The notes beneath the pieces are model-generated. The model worked only from the letters and a program-made list of their open reading frames with translations. It searched no databases and was not told where the DNA came from. A stretch of DNA of 64,000 bases from Candidatus Aenigmatarchaeota archaeon (lineage in GTDB: Archaea > Aenigmatarchaeota > Aenigmatarchaeia > QMZS01). Each line of letters opens with the position of its first letter. Positions within the stretch are counted from its first letter, which is position 1. The stretch lies in contig JAFGCN010000027.1 in NCBI GenBank assembly GCA_016932615.1, positions 15,277 through 79,276 on the forward strand, read 5' to 3'. Positions 3,455-41,283 of this stretch are shown here, in pieces. The translations under genes were made by a program, and so were the position numbers.

Positions 3455-4060
3455 TTATTCAAGCACAGGATAAACGTAATTGACAAAGCCGATGACCACC
3501 ATTGCTGTTCCAAACTTCTTTTTGGGGACGAAGCTTTCCGCCAGGAGCTTTATGTTTTTTAGCTCGTACTTTTCCGAAAACCCGTTGAAATACAATTCTT
3601 CTATGCTTGAGCGAAGCTGCTTTTCTGCCTCCGCTTCAGGCAGGTCGCCGTTGTACTCGCAGACAAGCCCGCCGAACTTTTCTCCGGTTTTCCTGTCATA
3701 AAGCCAGCCGAAAATTATCGCGGCAGTTGCGCGCGTTCCTTTCTCGGCAGTTGAAACCGCCATTATGGTTTCCATGACCGAGCCGTGGGCAAGCTCGTTT
3801 GGCCGCTCGATTTCTCTTGCTATTCCTGGAAGGATGGACGAGTAAGTCATGATGTTGCACATTTCAATTCCGGCATCCTTGAGGGCGAGGTGGTACGAGC
3901 CGGCGTGGACCGTTATGTCGCTTTCGCCCTTTCCCTGGGTCGTAAAAAAGTCCTTTGGAATTCTGCACCCTATGAGCGGTCCGTTTAGCTGCGCCTTCTT
4001 TTCATTGCTAGTTTCACCAGCACAAAAAGTTTTTCCCGTCATCTTTAGCGCAACATACAA
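3455..4060 (-). CDS. pdaD: Pyruvoyl-dependent arginine decarboxylase.
   Basis: FFTTQGKGESDITVHAGSYHLALKDAGIEMCNIMTYSSILP matches the PdaD core, including the serine in the GES motif that forms the pyruvoyl group. The true start is probably the Met at 4042. Confidence 0.7.
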   Translation of the reverse strand: MYVALKMTGKTFCAGETSNEKKAQLNGPLIGCRIPKDFFTTQGKGESDITVHAGSYHLALKDAGIEMCNIMTYSSILPGIAREIERPNELAHGSVMETIMAVSTAEKGTRATAAIIFGWLYDRKTGEKFGGLVCEYNGDLPEAEAEKQLRSSIEELYFNGFSEKYELKNIKLLAESFVPKKKFGTAMVVIGFVNYVYPVLE

Positions 4061-4147
4061 ATATGATTATGCGTAAATTGATTTAAAATTAAAATCGGAT
4101 TCTGCTTGCCAAATAGCTCCACTACAGCATATTTCCTGAAAAGTCGC

Positions 4148-5827
4148 TTACCTCATCTTGCCTGCTTCCCATTCCTTCATCTTGCCCTTTCCTACGGCCT
4201 GCCCTCCGATGAATCCGTGCTGCTCTTCCACGACCTGCAAGAGCCCCTTTATCGGGTCCATGAAGTGCTCCTGGATTTGGGTTTCCTGCATCTTGATGGC
4301 CGAATCCTCCAGCCCGTAAAAATGTAGATTTTCGGGCTCGGAAAGCTTTTCGGGGGGAACATCTTTTCGGAGAAACTCCACGTTTTTCTTGAGGGACATC
4401 GTGCTCTGGTCAACAGGGTCGCCGCCGACGCCGCCGGCTCTCTCGAAAATTATGAATCTAGTTTCGCTTTCGTCAAAGCCCCTTTTCCTGAGCATATACA
4501 TCCACCTGTAGAGCTGCTCCTGCTGCTCGGAGCCAAGGTAGATTGGGACGTGAGCCGGGCCAAGCGGAGTGGGCCAGCCGACGTGAAGCGTGTTCACATA
4601 CCTTGCGCTTCCAGAGCCCATTTCTTCTATGAACTTGTCAGGGTCAAGCTCGGCTCCAAGGCAGTGCTCAAAGTCGATTGCAGTCCTAAACCACTTGCAC
4701 CCTGCCTTTTCCATCTCCCTGCAAAGTATCACAAAGTGCGCGGGGTTGGCAGCTCTTGGCAGGTCCTCCATTCCTGACTTCATTGTTTCGGTCTCGATTA
4801 CGAATGGGATTTGGTATTGGCTTAGGAAGGGTTTAGGGTCCTTGAAGCAGTGCTCACCGCACTTCCCTTTTGCCTCTTCCGGGAAAAAATGCCCCCAGAT
4901 ATACTTCAGCGAAACTGCCGGGACCCAGATGTAAGGGTCGTTTTTCACGTTTTCCATCTTTTTGCCTTTTGTAATGTCTTTCCAGAGCGGGTCGCCCTTG
5001 TCGGACATCCACTTTCCAATCGAGAGATATGCCAGTCTTTCAGGGCCATAGCTAAGCTCAGATCTTTTTAGCTTTTCTACAGTATAGAACTTTACAATTT
5101 CTGGAGCGGATTTCTCAATAAGCTTTTTTATCCTTTCGTCAACCCTCTTCTGGAATTCCTGCAATAGTTTCTGAGCCTGTTCGGGTGGCGTTGACTGTGT
5201 AATAGTTTTCCCTTCTTTGTCCATTTCAGCTTTTACTTCTTCCTTGGCCTTTGGGCTGTATTTTTCTGGGTTCCGGGGATCTTCTATGATGTCTTCCACA
5301 GTGCTTCCTGCAACTATCCTTATCTCTTCCTGGTGTATGAGCCAGTTGAAGACATTCTCGTTTTCCTGCAGGAAAATCCAGAGCGGCCTTCCCCAGATAT
5401 CAACTACCTGAGTTGACTGGAAGTCTTTACCAAGCCAGCCATAGGGCTTGGTTTCAGAGGCGTGCTGAAGAAGGTACATTGCTTTTGCCTTGCCGCTTCT
5501 CTCTATATCACGAAGGAGGCATGCGTGCGTCCTTTCCCAGTCTTCTTTTACAGCCGAATCCAGGAGGATTCCGTTTGCGCCCATTGCAGTGGAGAGGCCG
5601 TGTATTCCGTAATGGATATTCATCTCCCTTAGCTGCTCTAGCTTTTTCATGACTCCTGGCGCAAGAAACTCTGCGGAAGTTTCGAGGTCAATCTGTGTAA
5701 ATGTAACGCCCTTAAATGCAGTATAAAAGCCCTTCTGGGCAAGGTCAATCTGGCCTATCTTTTCCTGCGGAGACGCCATGCTGAAAACCCCGGAGCTTAC
5801 GCCTATGGTATAACCCAGATTGGCCAT
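4148..5827 (-). CDS. Hypothetical 559-aa protein, possibly with two xylose-isomerase-like TIM-barrel halves.
   Basis: Long uninterrupted ORF with conserved-looking His/Glu-rich segments (IDFEHC, HVGW). The family assignment is only tentative. Confidence 0.45.
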   Translation of the reverse strand: MANLGYTIGVSSGVFSMASPQEKIGQIDLAQKGFYTAFKGVTFTQIDLETSAEFLAPGVMKKLEQLREMNIHYGIHGLSTAMGANGILLDSAVKEDWERTHACLLRDIERSGKAKAMYLLQHASETKPYGWLGKDFQSTQVVDIWGRPLWIFLQENENVFNWLIHQEEIRIVAGSTVEDIIEDPRNPEKYSPKAKEEVKAEMDKEGKTITQSTPPEQAQKLLQEFQKRVDERIKKLIEKSAPEIVKFYTVEKLKRSELSYGPERLAYLSIGKWMSDKGDPLWKDITKGKKMENVKNDPYIWVPAVSLKYIWGHFFPEEAKGKCGEHCFKDPKPFLSQYQIPFVIETETMKSGMEDLPRAANPAHFVILCREMEKAGCKWFRTAIDFEHCLGAELDPDKFIEEMGSGSARYVNTLHVGWPTPLGPAHVPIYLGSEQQEQLYRWMYMLRKRGFDESETRFIIFERAGGVGGDPVDQSTMSLKKNVEFLRKDVPPEKLSEPENLHFYGLEDSAIKMQETQIQEHFMDPIKGLLQVVEEQHGFIGGQAVGKGKMKEWEAGKMR

Positions 5828-11336: not shown

Positions 11337-11894
11337 TTAGGAAAGTCTTAATTTTGGGTGCTTAGAGGAAAGTTTTGCACACCAAAGCGACTCAAACCAA
11401 AGTTTTTTTTCGGCAATTATTTCCAGCCCGTATTTTTTCTTCAGCATTTCCACTTGGTTAAAACTTGAAAGCAGAACTATTGCCTCGCCCGTATTTTCTA
11501 GGTGATTTCCGACATTCTGCAAAAACCTTTCTGTCACCTCCTGCCCGTTCTTTCCGCCGCAGAGGCATTTTTCCCCCTTTCCCGGCAGGTATGGCGGGTT
11601 GAAGAAAACAAGGTCAAATTTTCCGGCTACTTTTTCGAACAGGTCGCTTTCGGCAAACTCGATGTTTTTTGCTCCTTTTTCCAATGCCTCCTTTTTTGCG
11701 CGCTTCAGGGCATCCGGATTGATGTCTATTGCGATAATCTTCCCTATTTTTGGGGAAAGTGCAATCGAGATGATTCCGCTTCCAGTGCCTATTTCAATCG
11801 CACTTTCAATTTTCCGGCTTCCAATTTCCTTTTCGATGCACTCCAGAAGAAAGTAGGTGTCTTCGCCCCCCTCGTATACGATTTCCTTCTCCAT
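11337..11894 (-). CDS. SAM-dependent methyltransferase, N5-glutamine (HemK/Mtq2-like) family.
   Basis: EIGTGSGIISIAL SAM-binding motif I and an NPPY motif (FFNPPYLP). Confidence 0.7.
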   Translation of the reverse strand: MEKEIVYEGGEDTYFLLECIEKEIGSRKIESAIEIGTGSGIISIALSPKIGKIIAIDINPDALKRAKKEALEKGAKNIEFAESDLFEKVAGKFDLVFFNPPYLPGKGEKCLCGGKNGQEVTERFLQNVGNHLENTGEAIVLLSSFNQVEMLKKKYGLEIIAEKKLWFESLWCAKLSSKHPKLRLS

Positions 11895-17675: not shown

Positions 17676-19028
17676 ATGGCTCCTGATTTGCGCGCTCTGG
17701 CAATTGTTGCTGCCATCATTTTCCTGCCAGCGGCAGCTTTGGCTGTGGACACAGGCGCGCCTTATTTTCAAAATCCTTCTTCTGCAGGTTCCTGTATTGA
17801 CGTGCCCCTGACAGTGGACGTAGAGGAAAGGTGCAGGATGAATCGGCTTGAGGCAAGCCCAAGGGTTCAGGGCGGCTGCGTCGTTGGGTATGACTGTGTT
17901 TACCCCTCCAAGGTTGGCTCTGTTGCAGGAAACAGCGCAAACTTAACGGTCCTTTCAATTGAGCCCTGTCTTGAAATCTCTGTTGTTTCAAACATCAGCC
18001 GCATTTTGGAGGAAATGAAGGCAGCAGAAGATAGCGGCGACAAGGCGGCTTATGATGAACTTTCCAGGGAGCTTGAGAAGCTAAGCTTATCGGTGGAAGC
18101 AGCAAGAGCCCGGTGTATTGCCAAGCTTCCGGCAAGGCCTTCAGAGGACCCAGACCACCTTCTGGATACCCCGGTGGCTGCCCAGATTAGGGCCTGCGAC
18201 GCTTTAGAATCGAGAAGGGCGAAAGTTGCTTACCTTCAGGGCATCCTTTCAGACCAGCAGAAGCAGAAATATTCCGGAGTTTCTCCCGAGGCGATTTCTG
18301 CAACAATTGGGCAATTGGAAGCCCAGTCGGCTTTTCTGGGGGAGGGCTGCAAAGATTTGGAGAAAGCAGGCCTTGGCGAACTTCTGATGGAGGCGGTAGG
18401 GGAGAGTACCTCAGGAGCAGGAGATATACTTGTCTACTACCAGATGCGCCTTTCCGAGATTTCTGCCTCTAATGAGACTCCTTCTGCAAAGGCAGGGCAA
18501 TTTATCGGGCTTAAGAATGAAACAAATCAGCTGGCGGCACTTCTTGTGGAAAAGCAGGGCCAGGTCAATGTCAGTGAACTCCGCCCCCTTGTAAGGAAAA
18601 TTTCCGTAATGCAGGGGGCAACTGAGGTGGAGGGCATAAGAGTTTATCCTAAGGCAGGCAGCATTGTTTTCAGGGCGAATGGGCTTCCCACTGCAATAAG
18701 GTACAACCTTTCTGGAATATTCCTGGATTCTGAAGGCATTTACGCCAAAATTGATAATATTACGCTTAATGAGGGTAAGCTCTTTGCAGAGGGAGTGGAA
18801 ATACGAGTTCTCCCTTCACAGGTAACAAGAAAGCTTGGCATTACGCCAAAGGAAATGCGGGTCGTGCCCAGGGGGGAAGGTCTGGCTTACCGGCTCACTC
18901 AGGAAGAGAGAGGAAAATTCCTGTGGCTTTTCCCGGTAGAGTATGAAAGGATAATCGAAGCCAGTGCGGAAAGCGCAAGCGTAGTGGCTAATAACGCCCC
19001 CTGGTGGTCAGTATTTGTAGTAAAATGA
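17676..19028 (+). CDS. Secreted hypothetical protein.
   Basis: Signal peptide (LRALAIVAAIIFLPAAALA) followed by an approximately 420-aa soluble domain. It occupies the position normally taken by adk after secY. Confidence 0.5.
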   Translation: MAPDLRALAIVAAIIFLPAAALAVDTGAPYFQNPSSAGSCIDVPLTVDVEERCRMNRLEASPRVQGGCVVGYDCVYPSKVGSVAGNSANLTVLSIEPCLEISVVSNISRILEEMKAAEDSGDKAAYDELSRELEKLSLSVEAARARCIAKLPARPSEDPDHLLDTPVAAQIRACDALESRRAKVAYLQGILSDQQKQKYSGVSPEAISATIGQLEAQSAFLGEGCKDLEKAGLGELLMEAVGESTSGAGDILVYYQMRLSEISASNETPSAKAGQFIGLKNETNQLAALLVEKQGQVNVSELRPLVRKISVMQGATEVEGIRVYPKAGSIVFRANGLPTAIRYNLSGIFLDSEGIYAKIDNITLNEGKLFAEGVEIRVLPSQVTRKLGITPKEMRVVPRGEGLAYRLTQEERGKFLWLFPVEYERIIEASAESASVVANNAPWWSVFVVK

Positions 19029-23597: not shown

Positions 23598-23706
23598 GGA
23601 TTATCGGGCTTAAGGCAGAACGTTTTTATGAATCATTGAGCAGTGCGTCGATTGCACTCCAAGCCACCTGGCTTTAAGGGTTAAATAGTATCCGGTTTCT
23701 AATTAT

Positions 23707-24468
23707 ATGGCGGAAAACAAAACCTTCAATGGAATAAATGTGACCCTGGTCGAGGATAAGGAAGAGATGACAAAAGTTGCAGCAGAGATTATCCTGGAAA
23801 GGATGAAATCAGCAAATCCGCTAAAGCTGTTGGTGCCGACAGGGACAACTCCCGAAGGGGTTTATGAGCTTTTAAGCCGGCAGGGCGCAGAGGTCCTTTC
23901 CAATGCCATTTTTTTCAATATGGACGAATACGGCCATCTGGAAAATGGGGTTTTCAGGTTTGTTTCCGAAGACCACCCGGCATCATACAGAAAATATATG
24001 AATGAGCGATTATTCTCGAAAATTGCCCCCCGGCCAAGGCATTATTTTCCGGGAATCGAGAACGCAAAGACGCCCGGCCATTACGATGAATTGATTGAAA
24101 ACCTGGGAGGGATTGACCTGTGCCTGAATGCTATGGGCGAGGATGGGCACATCTTTGGATTTAATTCCCCGCCCGAATCGGGCTTTGGCTCTGTGACAAG
24201 AATGGTCAAATTGACCGAAGACACGCAAAGCGTCAACCAGGGCTTGACGGGGCTGGAAACGCCCAGCCACGCTGTCACGGTTGGCCTGAAAACGGGGATG
24301 GCTTCAAAGGAAATCCTGTTTTTGGTGTGCGGGGAGAGAAAGGCGGATATTCTCCGAAAAGTCCTGTATTCCCCTGAGCCCACAGAAGAAATTCCAGCCA
24401 CGATACTTGCAAAACACCCCAACTGCCACTGGATTGTGGACAAGGCAGCGGCCAGCAAGCTTAACTGA
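23707..24468 (+). CDS. nagB: Glucosamine-6-phosphate deaminase / 6-phosphogluconolactonase family.
   Basis: LVPTGTTPEGVY and FFNMDEY motifs of the NagB/Pgl fold. Confidence 0.65.
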   Translation: MAENKTFNGINVTLVEDKEEMTKVAAEIILERMKSANPLKLLVPTGTTPEGVYELLSRQGAEVLSNAIFFNMDEYGHLENGVFRFVSEDHPASYRKYMNERLFSKIAPRPRHYFPGIENAKTPGHYDELIENLGGIDLCLNAMGEDGHIFGFNSPPESGFGSVTRMVKLTEDTQSVNQGLTGLETPSHAVTVGLKTGMASKEILFLVCGERKADILRKVLYSPEPTEEIPATILAKHPNCHWIVDKAAASKLN

Positions 24469-24500
24469 AGGGGCCCTAAGTCAGCAGAGCAAAAAGAACG

Positions 24501-25166
24501 TTATTGCTTTTCATTGATGACAAACCATTCACCTTCGCTAATCACTTCAATCTTATTGCCAATAATTTTCAGCGCGGAATTATCGTCAAGCGCATAGATT
24601 TTTCTGCTTATTTCCTGCCCGACTTTTTCTATGTTTTCTTTCCTCACTTTCTTGAACCATTCGGAGTTCAGGTGCGGCAGGAAATAAAAATCTACGAAAT
24701 TCAGGCCCTTTAATTCTTCGGTTTCCAGCATGTCTTCTTCAAAGAGCTCTTGCGATAGCTTTAATGACAGGTCGGGGTTTGTCACCATGCTTCCGGCGCT
24801 AAGGCCGACATACACCTTATCCTTCAATAGTTCGGGCAATGCCTTAGCCAAGCCGGACTTGTTCAGCCATCTCATCAGGTGGTAGGTGTTTCCGCCTTCA
24901 AAAAACAAAACGTCCGCCCTTTCCAGGCTTGGCTTCCAGATGGTTTCATCGACTGCCGAGATGTCAGTAATCTCGATGGCCTTGAAATTCAGTTTTTTCA
25001 GGTTAATCAGGTCGGCAATTAGCCAGCTTTTGTCCCCGGCTTCAGCATTGCTTGCGGTTGGAATAAAAACAAGGGTTGTTTCTTCTGGTCTTTTGCCAGT
25101 CATTTCAAACAGGGCACTGGCGATTGAATCATTGGTAAGCCCCATTGATGTCAGCAACAGTTTCAT
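24501..25166 (-). CDS. Peptidase family S51 (dipeptidase E / cyanophycinase-like).
   Basis: IPTAS...LFFEGGNTYHLMRWLNKSGL...VYVGLSAGSMV is the S51 catalytic Ser-His arrangement. Confidence 0.7.
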   Translation of the reverse strand: MKLLLTSMGLTNDSIASALFEMTGKRPEETTLVFIPTASNAEAGDKSWLIADLINLKKLNFKAIEITDISAVDETIWKPSLERADVLFFEGGNTYHLMRWLNKSGLAKALPELLKDKVYVGLSAGSMVTNPDLSLKLSQELFEEDMLETEELKGLNFVDFYFLPHLNSEWFKKVRKENIEKVGQEISRKIYALDDNSALKIIGNKIEVISEGEWFVINEKQ

Positions 25167-25336
25167 AATATTAGGTGGGGGAGGTATTAAAACTAACCTG
25201 AGGGGAGGTGGTGAAGTTTTTGCAGACCAAAAGCCGGCTTAGCCAAAGGACAAGGGAATTTGGGAGAGGCGAGGGTGGGCTGCTAAATTCTGGAGTAGGT
25301 CTTCGTTAATACAGCTAAGATGTAAACGGAGTGTTT

Positions 25337-26998
25337 CTAATCGGTGTACAGATTCATCAAGTCTTTTGCTTTAGCCATGATTAAACTGGCTCTTTGGTCA
25401 ATAAAGGAGTCATAATCGAGGTCTGCAAAATCTCTTGGAATTAACGATTCGTCGATATACTCATTAAAATGGCGCCTGTCAATTCGCCGAATATATTCGC
25501 TTGGTGCCTCATCCTTTATGGTATTGTTATCTCCTCGGGTTAAGAAACAAATATTGGCCAGCACATTTATTTTTCTTTTCTCAACACTACTTCGCTCCAA
25601 ATGCTTTTTGGGAAAAATGTGGTGAAATTCATGGGTATTTACTTTATTTAATACCCTTTCCAGCTTTATCGTTGTACCACTTACAAAAGAATGTGGCTCA
25701 AGTGAACCTAGTAAAAGAATTAACGTTTTTGAATCGGCACTTCCAGATGAGAACTTACTGTTCTTAAAGTCTACCTTAATTTCATCCAAAGGGTAATTGA
25801 AGCTATGATTTTCGTCATCCTTTAAAGCTTTAAACTCAGTAATATCAACAGCTTGCTTTTCATTAACGCCTGCAGAAAATCTTCGAGTAAAGACCGATCT
25901 CCAAAACCATTTCATCATTTTTTGTTTTTGCTTATCAGTATAAGGTGAACCTTCGGTTCTACAAGTTTCAAAGAAAACACTTAATGGGACAATGAGACCT
26001 GGGAACGGGAGCAATTTGTAATTCTTAATGTTTAATTCCCCTTTTAAGAAGTCAATTGCACCCAACATACCTCTCCTAATGTCTTCAAATCTTTCTCTAA
26101 TTTCTTGACCTTGCATTTCAAGGATTGCCTTGGGAGTAGTTTCTCCTCTAATAATCCCTGCACATATCCTTAATTGTAGGTCTCTATCTTTACACAACCC
26201 TTCGTACCCATGCTCTGCAATTTCTTCTTGAAGTTCGTCAAATTTTTCAACCAGGTCAAAATCTTCCGACCAGCTCCATGCGGACAAAAGTTGAAAGATG
26301 TCTAGCTCTGTACCCGCCCGATTTATTCTTTCAAAAACAATGGCTACACTATTCCGATCTTGTGACTCAAATGTCTCGTTGGGTATTAAGTATTCCTTAA
26401 ATCGGTCTTGAAGATTATCGATTTCTAATTTTTGCTTATCGGATAGCTTTTCCGTTGCTTTTCTATAACCTACCGTATCAAATAATACCTTCATGGGAAA
26501 ATATCTGTTTGAATCAACCTCTGATTCGTCAAGCGCTACAAATAACGATTCTTGGATACTTTCTTTAGCCTCCAAGTCAAAATATATATCCACCCATTCA
26601 TCATCTACTGGTGTAAGAGTGGTTTGAAAAACGCTAAATAAGCTAGTGATTCTTTGTTGCCCATCTAACACATAATTTACAGGATAATCTTTTAGCGGTT
26701 GAGGCAGAACAAATCTTCCCAGATCTTTTTCTGTTGTAAGGCGAGTATCAGTTTTCCATAAAATGATGGTTCCTATCGGAAAACCTTTGTAAATGCTATC
26801 TAGCAAAAATGCTACTTGATCAGGTTCCCAAACAAAATCTCGTTGAAAGGCCGGGATTCTTATATCTCCTGAAGAAATTCTCTCAATCAACTTCCTAATC
26901 GTAAGAGGGTCTCCCATTATAGTAGTTATATGGAATACCTCTGTACTCGGTCGTTTTCTGTTGATTTTAGACCCCTTGTTGAGTGCAACACTGTTCAA
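25337..26998 (-). CDS. DUF262-DUF1524 fusion protein: an N-terminal ParB/Srx-like NTPase domain and a C-terminal His-Me finger (HNH-like) nuclease, as in the GmrSD/SspE/BrxU family. Putative modification-dependent restriction or defence nuclease.
   Basis: N-terminal FQRDFVWEPDQVAFLLDSIYKGFPIGTIILW and DGQQRITSLF (DUF262 hallmarks). C-terminal HEFHHIFPKKHLERSSVEKRKINVLANICFLTRGDNNTIKDE (DUF1524-type H..H/N..N motif). The ORF begins at TTG (26998), and the first ATG is at 26917. Confidence 0.75.
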   Translation of the reverse strand: MNSVALNKGSKINRKRPSTEVFHITTIMGDPLTIRKLIERISSGDIRIPAFQRDFVWEPDQVAFLLDSIYKGFPIGTIILWKTDTRLTTEKDLGRFVLPQPLKDYPVNYVLDGQQRITSLFSVFQTTLTPVDDEWVDIYFDLEAKESIQESLFVALDESEVDSNRYFPMKVLFDTVGYRKATEKLSDKQKLEIDNLQDRFKEYLIPNETFESQDRNSVAIVFERINRAGTELDIFQLLSAWSWSEDFDLVEKFDELQEEIAEHGYEGLCKDRDLQLRICAGIIRGETTPKAILEMQGQEIRERFEDIRRGMLGAIDFLKGELNIKNYKLLPFPGLIVPLSVFFETCRTEGSPYTDKQKQKMMKWFWRSVFTRRFSAGVNEKQAVDITEFKALKDDENHSFNYPLDEIKVDFKNSKFSSGSADSKTLILLLGSLEPHSFVSGTTIKLERVLNKVNTHEFHHIFPKKHLERSSVEKRKINVLANICFLTRGDNNTIKDEAPSEYIRRIDRRHFNEYIDESLIPRDFADLDYDSFIDQRASLIMAKAKDLMNLYTD

Positions 26999-27033
26999 AA
27001 AACACGCAATAAATAACTCAAAAAAGGTTTTTT

Positions 27034-28110
27034 ATGGCGGAAAATGGAAATCCCCCCGGCGTTATGATTGTTGGCTATGGAGACATGGGAAAAATCCACT
27101 ACAAAAACCTTTTGCCCCTTCAGGAGGAGGGAAAGGTAAAAATTTCCTCGGTTGTTGACAGGGACTATTCCAAGGTGGAGGGGCTTGGCCCAATAGGATA
27201 CGAAAGCGTGCAGCAGGCGCTTGAAGAGACAAAGCCAGACATCGCCCTGGTCGTGGTCAACACGGATACTCACGCTGAGGTTATCGGCGAGCTAATCGAA
27301 TACGCCGGTAAGGAAAAATCCCCCGCAATCTACTGCGAAACCCCTTTCGCGGAGTCTCTTTCTGAGGCGCTTCCCCTGGCAGAAAAGCTTACCGCTCTTG
27401 GCTATGGAAGCGAAATCCCCCTGGGCTTTGCCTACCTCATAAGGTATTCTCCGGCCACCGATGCCCTTATTTCTTACATAAACGACAAAAACCTTCCGGT
27501 CGAAAGCGTTGACATCGCCTGGAGAAAGCTTCGAAAGCCGGCCCGCCCGTCTGCGGGAGTCCACATAGACGAGACGACCCACTCGGCGGACACGGCTCTG
27601 CAGTACATACTTCCGATGACCGGAAACCGCGTAAAGGGAGTAGCCCTTGAAAAAATCCGCCAGGTTTACACCGACAGCATCATCGACAAGGAAAAGCAGA
27701 CCGAGCTTTACGGAAAAGGTTCAGAGAAGATGGTCCCGATGGCGGAAGTTGAGTACACATTGAAGTGCCTGACCGAAGGCGGGAAGCTGATTCCTCTTCA
27801 CGGCTTTTCGTCTTACATGAACCCTGATTTTGTCAGGAGAATCTCGGTTTCATGCGAAAACGGCGAAACCCTGACCACCTATTACGACAAGGCGGGAAAG
27901 GACGAGCTGACAGTCAGGAGAGAGGGTAAAGCTGGGGAGGAGATGCTCGGCTCGTGGAACATGAGCACCCCCGGGAAAAACCGCGTCCGAATGGAGCTTG
28001 AGGACTTCCTTGATTACTACAAAACCGGAAAGCGCTCTCCAAGAATCGCCGGCCTCGATAGTGCGCTCTTTGACCTTCAGGTGACGGGTCTTCTTGAGTC
28101 TTCGCCCTGA
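27034..28110 (+). CDS. Gfo/Idh/MocA family NAD(P)-dependent oxidoreductase.
   Basis: N-terminal Rossmann fold (VMIVGYGDMGKIHYKN) with EKP and a C-terminal alpha/beta domain. Confidence 0.65.
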   Translation: MAENGNPPGVMIVGYGDMGKIHYKNLLPLQEEGKVKISSVVDRDYSKVEGLGPIGYESVQQALEETKPDIALVVVNTDTHAEVIGELIEYAGKEKSPAIYCETPFAESLSEALPLAEKLTALGYGSEIPLGFAYLIRYSPATDALISYINDKNLPVESVDIAWRKLRKPARPSAGVHIDETTHSADTALQYILPMTGNRVKGVALEKIRQVYTDSIIDKEKQTELYGKGSEKMVPMAEVEYTLKCLTEGGKLIPLHGFSSYMNPDFVRRISVSCENGETLTTYYDKAGKDELTVRREGKAGEEMLGSWNMSTPGKNRVRMELEDFLDYYKTGKRSPRIAGLDSALFDLQVTGLLESSP

Positions 28111-28190
28111 AGCTGAAAATAAGCAGCCCTAATAAGCGCAGCAACGCCAACTTATGGTTTAAAGCCAATCCAGATAATGAGGGTTTCAAT

Positions 28191-31959: not shown

Positions 31960-34900
31960 TTAGCTTGTAACTTCCATGACGAGCACTGAACCGGAATAAA
32001 TCAGGTACTCCGAATCGCTGCTTATGTCAGCAGTAATTTTTGCCTTGTATATGAAGGGCACAGTAGTCTCATAGCCGCTACCCGATAAAGGGAGCTCTAT
32101 CGATTCAAGCGCGATGCCTTCATAATCCAAGGCCCCTACGGGGCTTTCCGTCATTCTTATTTCAAGACTGCCGCCGAAGTTTCCGGTCTGGAAGTAATGG
32201 TAGACCTTTATTTTCACTCTTTCGCCAGGGTTTATATCGGACTTTGTGACGCTAAGCGTTATGTCTTTTTCAGGATTTTTCTTTGAAAGGACCGCCGTTT
32301 CGTAGCTTGATTTTATCCTGATTCCAGACCCCTCCCAGGCACCTTCCCTGCACACATAGAGCGAGCCCTTTCTCATTGCAGTGTATCCGTTTCCGACACA
32401 GGAATTTTCAAGGGCGCATTGTCCATTGAAGCAGCATATGCTTTTTGATTCATCTATGAGGGTGGGCGAGCAAGTGTAATCTGACGTTCCGGGAAGGTTG
32501 CAGTCGCAGTCATGAAGGCACTCCGCGTTTCCGACTCCGCCTTTACCCCAGACGCCGTTCTTGCACATCCACATGCACCCGTTAAGGTCGTTTTGCCCTT
32601 CCGGGTAGCACTCTATATTTGTAGGGCCTGTGGCGTGAGCGCACTGCCCCTTAGGGCAGCAGTAAAAGCAGGTGTCGTTTTTTATGGAAGTGTCCGTTTC
32701 GTAGAAACCGGGTTTGCCGGAAGTATATCCGCTTAGCCGATAGGTCACCATCTTGTAGGTCTGGCAGGTTTTTTCTCCGGGGCTTGAAAGAGTCGAGGGG
32801 CTGTCCTCCACACAAAACGAGTTTGGATAGCAGTCGGGGCTTTCAGAGTAGCAGAATGTCTTGTCGGGGGTATAGCAGTCGACGGTAATATTATATACAT
32901 TTTCGGTTGGCTTTCCTGCAAAGCTGATTTCATATGAGCCTGTTGCCTCCTTCAGCTCAAGCTTTTGCTTTCCGTTTGACTCAGGAACGGCAGGAACTTC
33001 TTCTTTGTTTTCGCTGAGCTCATAGATGTAGTCGCTGAAGGGGCTGTTGCCGTTATCCTCATACTGCTCGTATCCCTGCATTGAATGGCTAATCTTTGAA
33101 GCTTTTATCTGTATTTCATCATCAGCGCTTGGCTGTGGAATGACGTAGGCAATGGCGTCCCTTGGCCTGTCGAAGATTATGCTGTAGCTTAAGGGAGCAT
33201 TGCTGAAGCTGCTCTTCGGTGTGTTTACTCCATTGCAAAGGTTATAGTATTTATAATAATGGTCTGCCCGGTGATTGTCACACGGGTGGCTTATTTCGGT
33301 GTAGAGGGGTATTTTTTCAGTTTCTGATTCAAGTTTATAATTGAATATGGTTTCGCCACAGCTCTGGGAGTTAGTCCACTTGCCGTTATCACACTTTAGC
33401 TTTAGCCCCCCATATAGGATTTCAGTTCCATGCCTGTAGCATCCGACAGATGAATCTTCGTTAAGCGATTCGTAGCCATCCGTTCCTAAAACCTGCTTGC
33501 AATCTTTCCAGGTCGAATCTGAGCTGTCCCAGCATAGGGTAGGGCTGTCTGGGATTTCCACATGGGCGCAGTATGAAACCGTGCTGGTGAAGTCGCTCCA
33601 GGACTCCATTCCGGGGGATATAACTACGCCATCGTCTTGGACATTGCTGATTTGCTCTGTCGGGCAGCAAAAGCTCTGCCCGCCGGCAAAGTCTGCTGCG
33701 CAGTTTCCGGATGCACAGGGGTGAGAGTCATCGATTACCGTGTCTTCGCATTCGTAGAAATCCTTTATGGCAAGATAATTGCAGTAGCAGGCTTGTTTTG
33801 AGTTGAGGTAGGCATCCCTTTCTCCAATGCAGCTGCTGTGGTCTGAGCTTCCCGTTACACTCTCACAGCGGTAAGTTTTGCCTACGCTTGTCGGGCTGTC
33901 CCGGGGGTCAGCAATCATCGTGTACTTCTCGTTGTATATGAAATCTTCCTCGTCGGAGGCCTGCTCTTCTACCGGAACGCAGCAGTATTCGCCGTCAGGG
34001 CAAAGGGAGCCCTTCACTACTCCCCCATTTTTAACCACGGAAATTTTCCAGGAATATCTATTTGGATAATCACCGTAGTCAAGAAGGGGCTGGTTGCAGT
34101 ACTGCCAGTTGTTTACGGATAAGCTTGTTCTCTTGTACCAGGGTATGCTGGAGTCCACTTCCATACAGGTGCCACCTATGTCAGAGCAGGTTTTGGACTC
34201 ATCGATTGTACACTTGACTCCTGCCGGGCACATATTTGTGCCAACCCCTCTGGAAATAAAAAGCTGCTTTCCGCTTCCCCCGCACTCTCCGCCAAGCTTT
34301 ACTTCACAGAAGGCCTCATCGGGGTTGCTGTCCTGCATGTCTTTATAGTTCTGGCTTTGGTCGCTGCATCCTGCAAACCCGTCATAAACAGGGGCGTTAT
34401 CCATGCACCAGCCCTTGCAAAGTTCGTCCTCACACAGGCAGCCTGTTGAGCCGTCTTCTCCGCCGGGGCAGCCGGTGAAGTAGCGGGTGAGAAAGGAGCC
34501 GTCATGGTAGTAGTGACCCTCTGGATCGCCGCTGGGGAAGTGGTCCAGGCTAGAACTGTAGCCGCATCTATCCGTGCAGGTTACTTTTTTATTTGCATTG
34601 TCGTCTATGCACGTTTGCCATGGCTGGCAGTCTTTTACTGAGGAACTTCCCTCAGTCATTGCTGCTATTTTGCATAAATTGTCGCACCCGTCCTCACAGT
34701 AATAGAAATAGAGTTTGGTTTTATAGTCCGTGAACTTACTCATTGTCTCAAGGTAGTTTTTTGGGTCATAGGAGATCAGCTGGCTTTCCGTCCCACTAGA
34801 GTACCAGACCTCTTTGGCTTCAGAATAGGTTGGGTTTCCATCAGTACATTGGTCATCGAAGGGTGTGCAGTCAAACGTCCTGCTAAGACTGTCGCAATAG

Positions 34901-35055
34901 TTACAATCTCCTTCACAGTGAAACCCTTCAGAGTCGTCTTCACAGTGCGCTGTCGGGGCTATTAAGGTCAGGGTTATGAACAGTACAATCAAAGGTAAAA
35001 CTATCTCACTTCTCATACTCCTTAAGCTTCCCCTCAAGTTTTTCGACACCCTCAT
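31960..35055 (-). CDS. Giant secreted cysteine-rich protein, 1031 aa with about 130 Cys.
   Basis: N-terminal signal peptide (EIVLPLIVLFITLTLIAPTAHC), then Cys-dense sequence throughout with Gly/Asp/Tyr/Trp-rich segments. No obvious C-terminal anchor. Confidence 0.7.
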   Translation of the reverse strand: MRVSKNLRGSLRSMRSEIVLPLIVLFITLTLIAPTAHCEDDSEGFHCEGDCNYCDSLSRTFDCTPFDDQCTDGNPTYSEAKEVWYSSGTESQLISYDPKNYLETMSKFTDYKTKLYFYYCEDGCDNLCKIAAMTEGSSSVKDCQPWQTCIDDNANKKVTCTDRCGYSSSLDHFPSGDPEGHYYHDGSFLTRYFTGCPGGEDGSTGCLCEDELCKGWCMDNAPVYDGFAGCSDQSQNYKDMQDSNPDEAFCEVKLGGECGGSGKQLFISRGVGTNMCPAGVKCTIDESKTCSDIGGTCMEVDSSIPWYKRTSLSVNNWQYCNQPLLDYGDYPNRYSWKISVVKNGGVVKGSLCPDGEYCCVPVEEQASDEEDFIYNEKYTMIADPRDSPTSVGKTYRCESVTGSSDHSSCIGERDAYLNSKQACYCNYLAIKDFYECEDTVIDDSHPCASGNCAADFAGGQSFCCPTEQISNVQDDGVVISPGMESWSDFTSTVSYCAHVEIPDSPTLCWDSSDSTWKDCKQVLGTDGYESLNEDSSVGCYRHGTEILYGGLKLKCDNGKWTNSQSCGETIFNYKLESETEKIPLYTEISHPCDNHRADHYYKYYNLCNGVNTPKSSFSNAPLSYSIIFDRPRDAIAYVIPQPSADDEIQIKASKISHSMQGYEQYEDNGNSPFSDYIYELSENKEEVPAVPESNGKQKLELKEATGSYEISFAGKPTENVYNITVDCYTPDKTFCYSESPDCYPNSFCVEDSPSTLSSPGEKTCQTYKMVTYRLSGYTSGKPGFYETDTSIKNDTCFYCCPKGQCAHATGPTNIECYPEGQNDLNGCMWMCKNGVWGKGGVGNAECLHDCDCNLPGTSDYTCSPTLIDESKSICCFNGQCALENSCVGNGYTAMRKGSLYVCREGAWEGSGIRIKSSYETAVLSKKNPEKDITLSVTKSDINPGERVKIKVYHYFQTGNFGGSLEIRMTESPVGALDYEGIALESIELPLSGSGYETTVPFIYKAKITADISSDSEYLIYSGSVLVMEVTS

Positions 35056-40041: not shown

Positions 40042-41283
40042 ATGGAAAAAGATGAAATATTGAAAGAGATAACAGATAAATATCTTGGTTCAGAAGAATT
40101 CAATGGTTATGCTCTTTATAATTTGGAAAATGAAATACAAAAGATAATTGAATTAGTTAAGGATGAAAAAATTGAAATAAATTTTGGTGATGGGCATCCG
40201 AATTTTCATATTAAAGCATTTGATTGTGATAATGTAGATACTCAATTAAAAAAAATTGATTCAATGGGACTTAATAATTCATGTGCATATCCAACAAAAA
40301 AATATCTCAAAACAAAAATACCTTATGGAAAATATAAAGATAAACCATTTACGAGATTGATTGCATTAGGTGAAGCAACACTAAACTTTGCGGTGTTTGA
40401 TTTAAGTGTTCTAGAAATATATAGAAATGATCCTAGGTTTTCATATTCTACTGATGATGTTGGTGGGCAAATTAACATCTCTGATGATTACTATAAATCT
40501 ACAGAAGTAAAATCCTCCGATAAAATTTTACTTCAGACGTTTGGTTTTTGTTATGAAAAAGAAAAGTTTAATAGAGCAGTTGCAGTATTTTATAGATATC
40601 TGGCTAATTTATCTGATGAACATCAAAAAATATGGCATGCTAAACTTTTGAGTGGAGATTATTTTTTACACCCGGATTATGCCCGAAGTTCTATGGGACA
40701 TTGGCCTGAAAAAGTTTCAATTTTTGAAGCATTTATTGAAGAACTAAAAACGATTAATGAGTTTTCTAAATTAATGAATAGACCAACTTTATTTAAGGAA
40801 GATTTCAAAAATAATAAACCTAGAGATTTTGCATTTTTAATCCGACCAACACTTAAAGAATTTAATTCATTTATTCATTTGTTAGATAAAATGATTTCTG
40901 ACAATATCAATAAAGATTTTTTTAAGGATGATATTGAGTTAGAATCTGAAGAAATTAGAACAGATGGTAAGATTATTGTTAGACAAAAAGCAACGATTAC
41001 TCTACTGAAAGACTGGTTAGATAAAGTAGTCAAATTTCCTGATCCAAAACCTAAGGAAGAAATGATAAAAACAATAAGAAATATTAGAACTATGCGTCAA
41101 CATCCTGCTCATAAAGTTGATGAAGATGTTTTTGACCAAAAATATTTCAAAGAACAAAGAGAGTTAGTTATTGAAGCATATAATGCAATAAGAACTTTGA
41201 GATTAATTCTTGCAAATAATCCTAGAACCAGATCTTATGAAGTGCCAGATTGGTTATATAAAGGAGAAATTTGGTCATTTTGA
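40042..41283 (+). CDS. Hypothetical 413-aa protein on a strongly AT-rich segment, carrying a C-terminal HEPN-like Rx4H motif. Possible Abi-like defence protein.
   Basis: Codon usage and base composition differ sharply from the flanks (roughly 30% G+C by eye). IRNIRTMRQHPAHK contains Rx4H twice. No other family recognised. Confidence 0.55.
   Translation: MEKDEILKEITDKYLGSEEFNGYALYNLENEIQKIIELVKDEKIEINFGDGHPNFHIKAFDCDNVDTQLKKIDSMGLNNSCAYPTKKYLKTKIPYGKYKDKPFTRLIALGEATLNFAVFDLSVLEIYRNDPRFSYSTDDVGGQINISDDYYKSTEVKSSDKILLQTFGFCYEKEKFNRAVAVFYRYLANLSDEHQKIWHAKLLSGDYFLHPDYARSSMGHWPEKVSIFEAFIEELKTINEFSKLMNRPTLFKEDFKNNKPRDFAFLIRPTLKEFNSFIHLLDKMISDNINKDFFKDDIELESEEIRTDGKIIVRQKATITLLKDWLDKVVKFPDPKPKEEMIKTIRNIRTMRQHPAHKVDEDVFDQKYFKEQRELVIEAYNAIRTLRLILANNPRTRSYEVPDWLYKGEIWSF

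Follow-up and report, generated by a model that had tools for sequence, protein, structure and literature searches.

A single-gene BrxU-like nuclease, probably a modification-dependent restriction enzyme of bacterial origin, in a variable slot of a Candidatus Aenigmarchaeota genome

A 64-kb window of DNA (64,000 nucleotides of contig JAFGCN010000027.1, the whole stretch analysed here) from a Candidatus Aenigmarchaeota archaeon was studied around one gene on its minus strand. The encoded protein has an N-terminal GmrSD_N (DUF262) domain, a helical linker and a divergent C-terminal GmrSD_C (DUF1524) nuclease domain. Quite probably it is a BrxU-like restriction enzyme of the modification-dependent kind (type IV), encoded by one gene that this DPANN genome acquired horizontally from bacteria, at a variable spot. 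A preliminary description, made from the DNA letters, had presented the gene as a stand-alone DUF262-DUF1524 nuclease of the GmrSD/BrxU type; this is borne out by Pfam, by the PADLOC model HEC-05, by BrxU (7P9K), by the retained functional residues and by the lack of any partner nearby. Residues are numbered on the 526-aa protein unless the longer, 553-aa open reading frame (ORF) is named.

Domain organization and similarity to BrxU

The N-terminal domain was recognized by Pfam PF03235 (E 8.5e-30 for residues 34-241 of the 553-aa ORF, and E 7.7e-30 for residues 7-214 of the 526-aa protein) and aligned with BrxU residues 7-106. Its four motifs, FQR, FLLDS, DGQQR and FERIN (Table 1), are all invariant across 41 family members, and the DUF262 hallmarks claimed earlier, FQR and DGQQR among them, stand. 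The pattern seen in FERIN, FxxxN, has been named as a motif of the GmrSD family (PMC12137116).

BrxU is the closest structural relative. The model HEC-05 (PDLC04151), which is of the BrxU type (bioRxiv 10.1101/2024.01.29.577857), was matched over its full length (E 2.3e-39, residues 25-548 of the 553-aa query against 17-593 of the 600 model positions). In the Protein Data Bank (PDB), BrxU 7P9K was the sole significant match by sequence (E 1.3e-11 with the single sequence, 5.3e-16 with a profile). BrxU 7P9K/7P9M was also the sole significant PDB match found by Foldseek (full-length alignment, E 1.4e-9, probability 1.00). The next chains were marginal ones of Cas9, a protein that carries an HNH domain. 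Like BrxU, the window protein is one chain that runs from a DUF262 domain at the N-terminus through a helical linker to a DUF1524 His-Me nuclease domain at the C-terminus. It differs in length (526 aa versus 587 aa for BrxU), in overall identity (~17% in the structural alignment), in its nuclease motif (HHIFP versus DHIYP) and in its setting, an archaeal host and a locus outside any BREX, Hma or type I restriction-modification (R-M) system.

Mutagenesis of BrxU has shown that S42, Q101, R102, D474, H475, N485, N519 and E528 matter for function (PMC8565348, from which the role of S42 is also taken). The counterparts of five of these residues are conserved in the family of the window protein. 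S41 of FLLDS corresponds to S42, Q88 and R89 of DGQQR to Q101 and R102, and H433 to H475, all four being invariant; N465, the counterpart of N519, is present in 40 of the 41 members. In the nuclease motif EFHHIFP, H433 falls on H475 and H432 takes the place of D474, a correspondence drawn from the likeness and place of the motifs and not read off a printed alignment. Further downstream, in NVLAN...DNN, N455 lies at about BrxU N509, and N464 and N465 lie at about N518 and N519; N455 and N464 are invariant. The catalytic residues described earlier as HHIFP...N...N are therefore present as EFHHIFP...N...DNN, invariant or nearly so, and the His and Asn residues remained intact on alignment.

The C-terminal domain is, on sequence and model evidence, a divergent DUF1524 His-Me finger with HH for DH, because several lines agree. 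PF07510 (GmrSD_C/DUF1524) was matched by 31 of 41 relatives that are 60-70% identical to the window protein (best E 2.3e-5), HEC-05 extends over the full length, and the family profile aligns, weakly, with BrxU C-terminal residues 502-574. The AlphaFold2 model, computed as a monomer (mean pLDDT 71; ~85-95 over residues 220-520), places a strand at 429-433, a second at 456-460 and a helix at 461-467, forming a strand-strand-helix unit (429-467), and the Foldseek result is in line with it. His-Me/HNH motifs with HH are a recognized variant, known for instance from colicin DNases.

Comparison with other systems and search for partner genes

Resemblance to the GmrSD enzymes Eco94GmrSD and EcoCTGmrSD lies in the Pfam GmrSD_N domain, in GmrSD_C at the family level, in the QR, DGQQR and FxxxN motifs, and in the stand-alone position of the gene, which has no cognate methyltransferase. 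The difference is a C-terminal domain divergent enough to miss the Pfam model. In Vibrio cholerae, GrwA and TgvB of the GrwAB and TgvAB systems have the DUF262-linker-DUF1524 architecture and are modification dependent (PMC12137116). The window protein shares this architecture. Those systems, in contrast, require a second DUF262 protein, and none is encoded in the window or beside the bacterial homologues. SspE, which the preliminary description had also offered for comparison, is a poor match. An N-terminal DUF262 domain with the DGQQR motif is common to both, whereas SspE models matched only ~100 N-terminal residues (~32-129, E 2e-7 or weaker), the window protein is ~220-245 aa shorter than these models, and no ssp or dnd genes occur in the window. 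The best PADLOC match of all was to PDC-M55C (E 5.3e-59, residues 34-481 of 553). No other ORF of the window matched any PDC-M55 model, so that partner genes A and B were not found there, and no publication on PDC-M55 was found in the literature searched.

Neighbouring genes were examined with the same database. PADLOC matched none of ten large ORFs in the flanks. Across all 65 rough ORFs of the window other than the nuclease gene it produced a single match, to 'mad2' (MADS methyltransferase, E 7e-22). Its probable source is a 185-aa ORF at 11340..11894 (-), 13.4 kb away, an assignment not directly verified. This ORF has an NPPY motif and a Pfam type of small MTS/HemK-like methyltransferase, and its size and domain suggest a housekeeping protein or RNA methyltransferase. 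The low-GC ORF at 40042..41283 and nine other ORFs were also considered as the source of the match, and proved wrong. The earlier claim that methyltransferase, dnd/ssp and brx genes are absent within 10 kb is confirmed: the flanking ORFs were clean in PADLOC, and the mad2-type candidate lies farther off. No integrase, transposase or other mobile-element gene flanks the gene in the window.

Bacterial relatives and origin of the gene

The flanks carry archaeal markers: RNA polymerase subunit N, an archaeal-type HMG-CoA synthase with its thiolase partner, and matches to archaeal-type models of SecY, glycyl-tRNA synthetase and tyrosyl-tRNA synthetase. The gene, in contrast, has bacterial relatives. 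All its named close relatives are bacterial (LCP-89, Desulfolithobacter, Vibrio, Brucella, Rhizobium and Pseudomonas), as are all of the best 80 loci, from more than 10 phyla, in a search of 185,579 GTDB species genomes. The ~522-aa family keeps 60-70% identity across more than 10 bacterial phyla, and in a neighbour-joining tree the window protein is nested inside it, with a mean identity to the other members of 0.64 versus 0.66 among those members. The G+C content (GC) of the gene is 0.37 and that of its third codon positions (GC3) 0.32. Its neighbours have GC3 values of 0.45-0.66, and the fall coincides with the gene borders. The gene was thus apparently imported from bacteria; the preliminary description had missed that the host of this bacterial-type gene is a DPANN archaeon (a Ca. 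Aenigmarchaeota metagenome-assembled genome).

GmrSD-like genes in archaea are not new, because distantly related ones were found on Halobacterium and Methanosphaera plasmids (at most 29% identity) and HEC-05-type genes have been reported in ~21% of Halobacteria genomes. GmrSD-like and HEC-05-type genes are common, haloarchaea included (bioRxiv 10.1101/2025.11.08.687337). By sequence, the window gene is a member of a bacterial subfamily. GenBank phage records contained distant relatives only (at most 29% identity), and the wider superfamily comprised 519 clusters at 50% identity (E<=1e-30).

In bacteria, the homologues have unrelated neighbours and lie in no BREX, Hma or type I R-M locus. The Pseudomonas aeruginosa homologue (loci L001-L005), 62% identical to the window protein, borders a Pf-like filamentous prophage that has Zot and an integrase, and directly adjoins the prophage end with the Arc-type repressor. 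A viral contig of IMG/VR (L091) includes this gene, the region being matched at 96% identity, and the family occurs on 5 IMG/VR contigs. The P. aeruginosa homologue may be prophage-borne defence cargo. The Desulfolithobacter gene is flanked by two copies of IS66, the V. cholerae gene stands alone between carAB and a TauE gene, and the LCP-89 gene is likewise alone. On these four contexts, the rule for the ~522-aa family is a gene that stands alone, on or next to mobile DNA.

A variable slot between IleRS and GDSL genes

The gene lies in a slot between the isoleucyl-tRNA synthetase (IleRS) gene and the GDSL-thiolase-HMG-CoA synthase genes. In the window, this slot holds a NagB-like gene, a peptidase S51 gene, the nuclease gene and a GFO/IDH/MocA oxidoreductase gene. 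Relatives of the archaeon were located with IleRS as probe; the flanking GFO-type gene, used in the same way, returned no relatives in genome or metagenome contigs. In locus L102 (IleRS 68% identical) the order is IleRS, GDSL, thiolase, HMG-CoA synthase, and the slot is a gap of ~640 bp that holds one unrelated 175-aa gene. In locus L097 (IleRS 73% identical) the slot contains a homologue of the same 175-aa gene and, at 3521..4170, a toxin-antitoxin pair of a HepT-like (HEPN) protein and an MNT nucleotidyltransferase (Pfam E 1.4e-29 and 1.1e-18). Because both loci differ from the window at this point, the IleRS-GDSL junction is a variable spot that gathers accessory cargo. A check of the locus for variability, as a signature of defence islands, had been suggested earlier, and the differing content in both relatives, with the HepT/MNT pair in one, answers it positively. 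The earlier wording that the gene lies among housekeeping genes is correct by annotation of the neighbours; the slot in which it sits is not constant between relatives. No border repeats or target-site duplications were found around the gene, short matches at chance level apart.

Two side observations concern the slot. A 15-nt direct repeat, TT(A/T)TATGGCGGAAAA, occurs at 23703..23717 and 27030..27044, and may be due to chance. The NagB-like gene has one copy at its start codon and the GFO gene the other, both proteins open with MAEN, and the copies flank the NagB-like, S51 and nuclease genes. The peptidase S51 gene (dipeptidase E-like, 24501..25166 (-)) adjoins the nuclease gene. Its protein is 75-87% identical to entries labelled Patescibacteria/candidate phyla radiation (CPR) (Minisyncoccales, Moranbacteria, Dojkabacteria) and Pacearchaeota; judged by these matches, the gene appears to be common to ultra-small bacteria and DPANN archaea.

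Gene model

The longest ORF, 25337..26998 (-), opens with TTG and has 553 codons, as described earlier. TTG as the start of the gene could not be upheld. An identical database protein, MBN2095633.1 (526 aa; 'MAG: DUF262 domain-containing protein [Candidatus Aenigmarchaeota archaeon]', on a 108-kb contig), has as its first residue the ATG at 26917. About 120 close homologues of ~522 aa each span 94% of the 553-aa query, and their alignment begins at the Met of this ATG (MSEPITIRKLI against MGDPLTIRKLI). The 27 residues of the TTG extension are present in none of them, and the Pfam domain begins downstream of these residues. Because MBN2095633.1 and the homologues all start at this Met, the gene is taken as given in Table 1, and the TTG start almost certainly, as judged from these alignments, came about artificially through the choice of the longest ORF.

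Between the gene and the peptidase S51 gene downstream lie 170 bp, exactly as first described. This spacer holds a single weak terminator-like hairpin (25246..25234, minus strand). A scan for sigma-70 promoters and terminators, which is ill-suited to archaea, gave no signal above shuffled expectation.

Table 1. Coordinates of the nuclease gene, its domains and motifs, and the surrounding features in the window.
Feature	Coordinates	Strand	Remarks
GmrSD/BrxU-like coding sequence	25337..26917	-	526 aa + stop, ATG start; translation checked
In-frame 81-nt extension up to TTG (27 residues)	26918..26998	-	probably untranslated 5' region
GmrSD_N (DUF262, ParB-like NTPase), residues 7-214	26276..26899	-	Pfam PF03235
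FQR, DUF262 'QR' motif	26840..26848	-	41/41 members; coordinates verified
FLLDS, counterpart of BrxU RLFDS nucleotide-binding and dimer-switch motif	26795..26809	-	7P9K alignment; invariant in family
DGQQR, NTP-hydrolysis motif	26651..26665	-	41/41 members; coordinates verified
FERIN, FxxxN motif of GmrSD family	26321..26335	-	F195, N199 invariant
Alpha-helical linker/middle domain, residues ~222-420	25658..26254	-	AlphaFold2 all-helical, pLDDT ~85-95
C-terminal divergent DUF1524 (GmrSD_C) His-Me finger, residues 425-526	25340..25645	-	family Pfam matches and model
EFHHIFP nuclease motif, cf. BrxU DHIYP	25610..25630	-	E430, H432, H433, P436 invariant
NVLAN...DNN, His-Me finger Asn residues	25523..25567	-	weak profile alignment to BrxU 502-574
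Spacer between gene stop and peptidase S51 gene start	25167..25336		170 bp; weak hairpin inside
Variable slot between IleRS and GDSL-thiolase-HMG-CoA synthase genes	23598..28190		comparison with two relatives

Proposed function and alternative explanations

By analogy with BrxU, the DUF262 domain would bind and hydrolyse nucleotide through FLLDS and DGQQR, and the nucleotide cycle would power the opening and re-closing of a dimer through the helical linker. This cycle would let the C-terminal His-Me finger (HH...N...NN) cut incoming modified DNA, for example that of viruses with modified cytosines. Unmodified host DNA would be spared, and no partner methyltransferase would be needed because the DNA of the host itself would be unmodified. 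Enzymatic activity, dependence on modification, the nature of the target and expression in the archaeon are all proposed on this analogy.

Several results weigh against this reading. PF07510 was not matched by the window protein alone, even at E<=1, so that the DUF1524 domain of the preliminary description holds for the family and by structure, not for the window protein taken by itself. The overall Foldseek TM-score to BrxU is only 0.43, and the N-terminal domain is poorly modelled by AlphaFold2 (pLDDT <50 over residues 1-101). Among the functional residues of BrxU, D474, whose change to Ala abolishes function (PMC8565348), is replaced by an invariant His (H432), the counterpart of E528 (E474) is variable in the family, and no counterpart of N485 could be mapped. 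No experimentally characterized member of the ~522-aa subfamily was found in the literature searched. At the DNA level the closest bacterial genes sampled are only ~70% identical, which leaves the donor unsampled. Upstream of the ATG, neither an archaeal promoter nor a ribosome-binding signal was convincing.

This last point also suits a reading in which the nuclease serves mobile elements as cargo that excludes competing phages and plasmids, and is stranded in the archaeon, where it would now do little or nothing. The P. aeruginosa copy at a prophage edge and within a viral contig, the IS66 elements around the Desulfolithobacter copy and a composition that shows no shift toward host values are in its favour. 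However, the ORF is full length and has kept all family-invariant residues, which argues against decay, and no integrase or transposase flanks it in the window. The biochemical mechanism would be identical to that of the restriction enzyme proposed here, the beneficiary alone being different. This reading is considered unlikely. The sharp GC fall over exactly the gene, the bacterial identity of all close relatives and the metagenomic source of the assembly could also be explained by a bacterial gene misjoined into an archaeal contig during assembly or binning. This is very improbable: the anomaly is only ~1.7 kb long, both flanks on the one contig are archaeal (RNA polymerase subunit N, HMG-CoA synthase, SecY) and host-like in composition, where a chimeric join would normally run bacterial sequence to the contig end, and the IleRS...GDSL-thiolase-HMG-CoA synthase synteny recurs in independent relatives.

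That the protein is a housekeeping ParB/sulfiredoxin-like NTPase for chromosome maintenance or repair is hardly credible. DUF262 does belong to the ParB/Srx fold and the neighbours are housekeeping genes, but the gene is missing from the same locus in two relatives, its distribution across domains is patchy with 60-70% identity between hosts, and its composition is foreign. A conserved His-Me nuclease domain and a full-length match to a defence model also stand against such a role. An NCBIfam search of the window protein found no matching model, and thus no housekeeping family match; nor does any profile place it in the ParB/sulfiredoxin clade, a placement sought because it would have overturned the initial identification. 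There is just as slight a chance that the protein is an SspE-like phosphorothioate sensor, or the C component of a PDC-M55 or GrwAB/TgvAB-type system, with its partners elsewhere in the genome. The first rank of PDC-M55C, the weak SspE matches and the existence of two-gene GmrSD-like systems (PMC12137116) speak for it. Against it, the PDC-M55C match ends well before the C-terminus, at residue 481 of 553, SspE models stop at about residue 129, no other ORF of the window matches PDC-M55, Ssp or Dnd models, and the bacterial homologues are consistently alone among unrelated neighbours. Finally, the HH-motif ~522-aa subfamily might form a type IV enzyme that differs in function, with an undescribed specificity or role, which is improbable. 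Were it so, the nuclease of an ultra-small symbiotic archaeon could go beyond antiviral defence, for instance by selectively degrading modified DNA from the host cell or from neighbouring cells as a source of nucleotides, the symbiont's own unmodified genome being spared.

As a BrxU-like restriction enzyme, the gene would be an example of inter-domain transfer of a single-gene defence nuclease to a DPANN archaeon, at a junction that carries a toxin-antitoxin pair in a relative. Horizontal acquisition of virus-defence genes is a reported pattern in Aenigmarchaeota (PMC8407114), to which it adds a concrete case. It also draws attention to a GmrSD subfamily that is uncharacterized, carries HH in its nuclease motif and is conserved to an unusual degree, with members in P. 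aeruginosa and V. cholerae. No new category is opened; this is a clear but fairly ordinary mobile defence gene.

Other open reading frames of the window

The 413-aa ORF at 40042..41283 (+) has an extremely low GC of 0.279, in a window that averages 0.47, and a GC3 of 0.152. It had no Pfam or PADLOC match and is probably another foreign gene. Two further large ORFs, 31960..35055 (-) of 1031 aa and 17676..19028 (+) of 450 aa, were without Pfam or PADLOC match. The 1031-aa protein has a 29% identical counterpart at the same position in L102.

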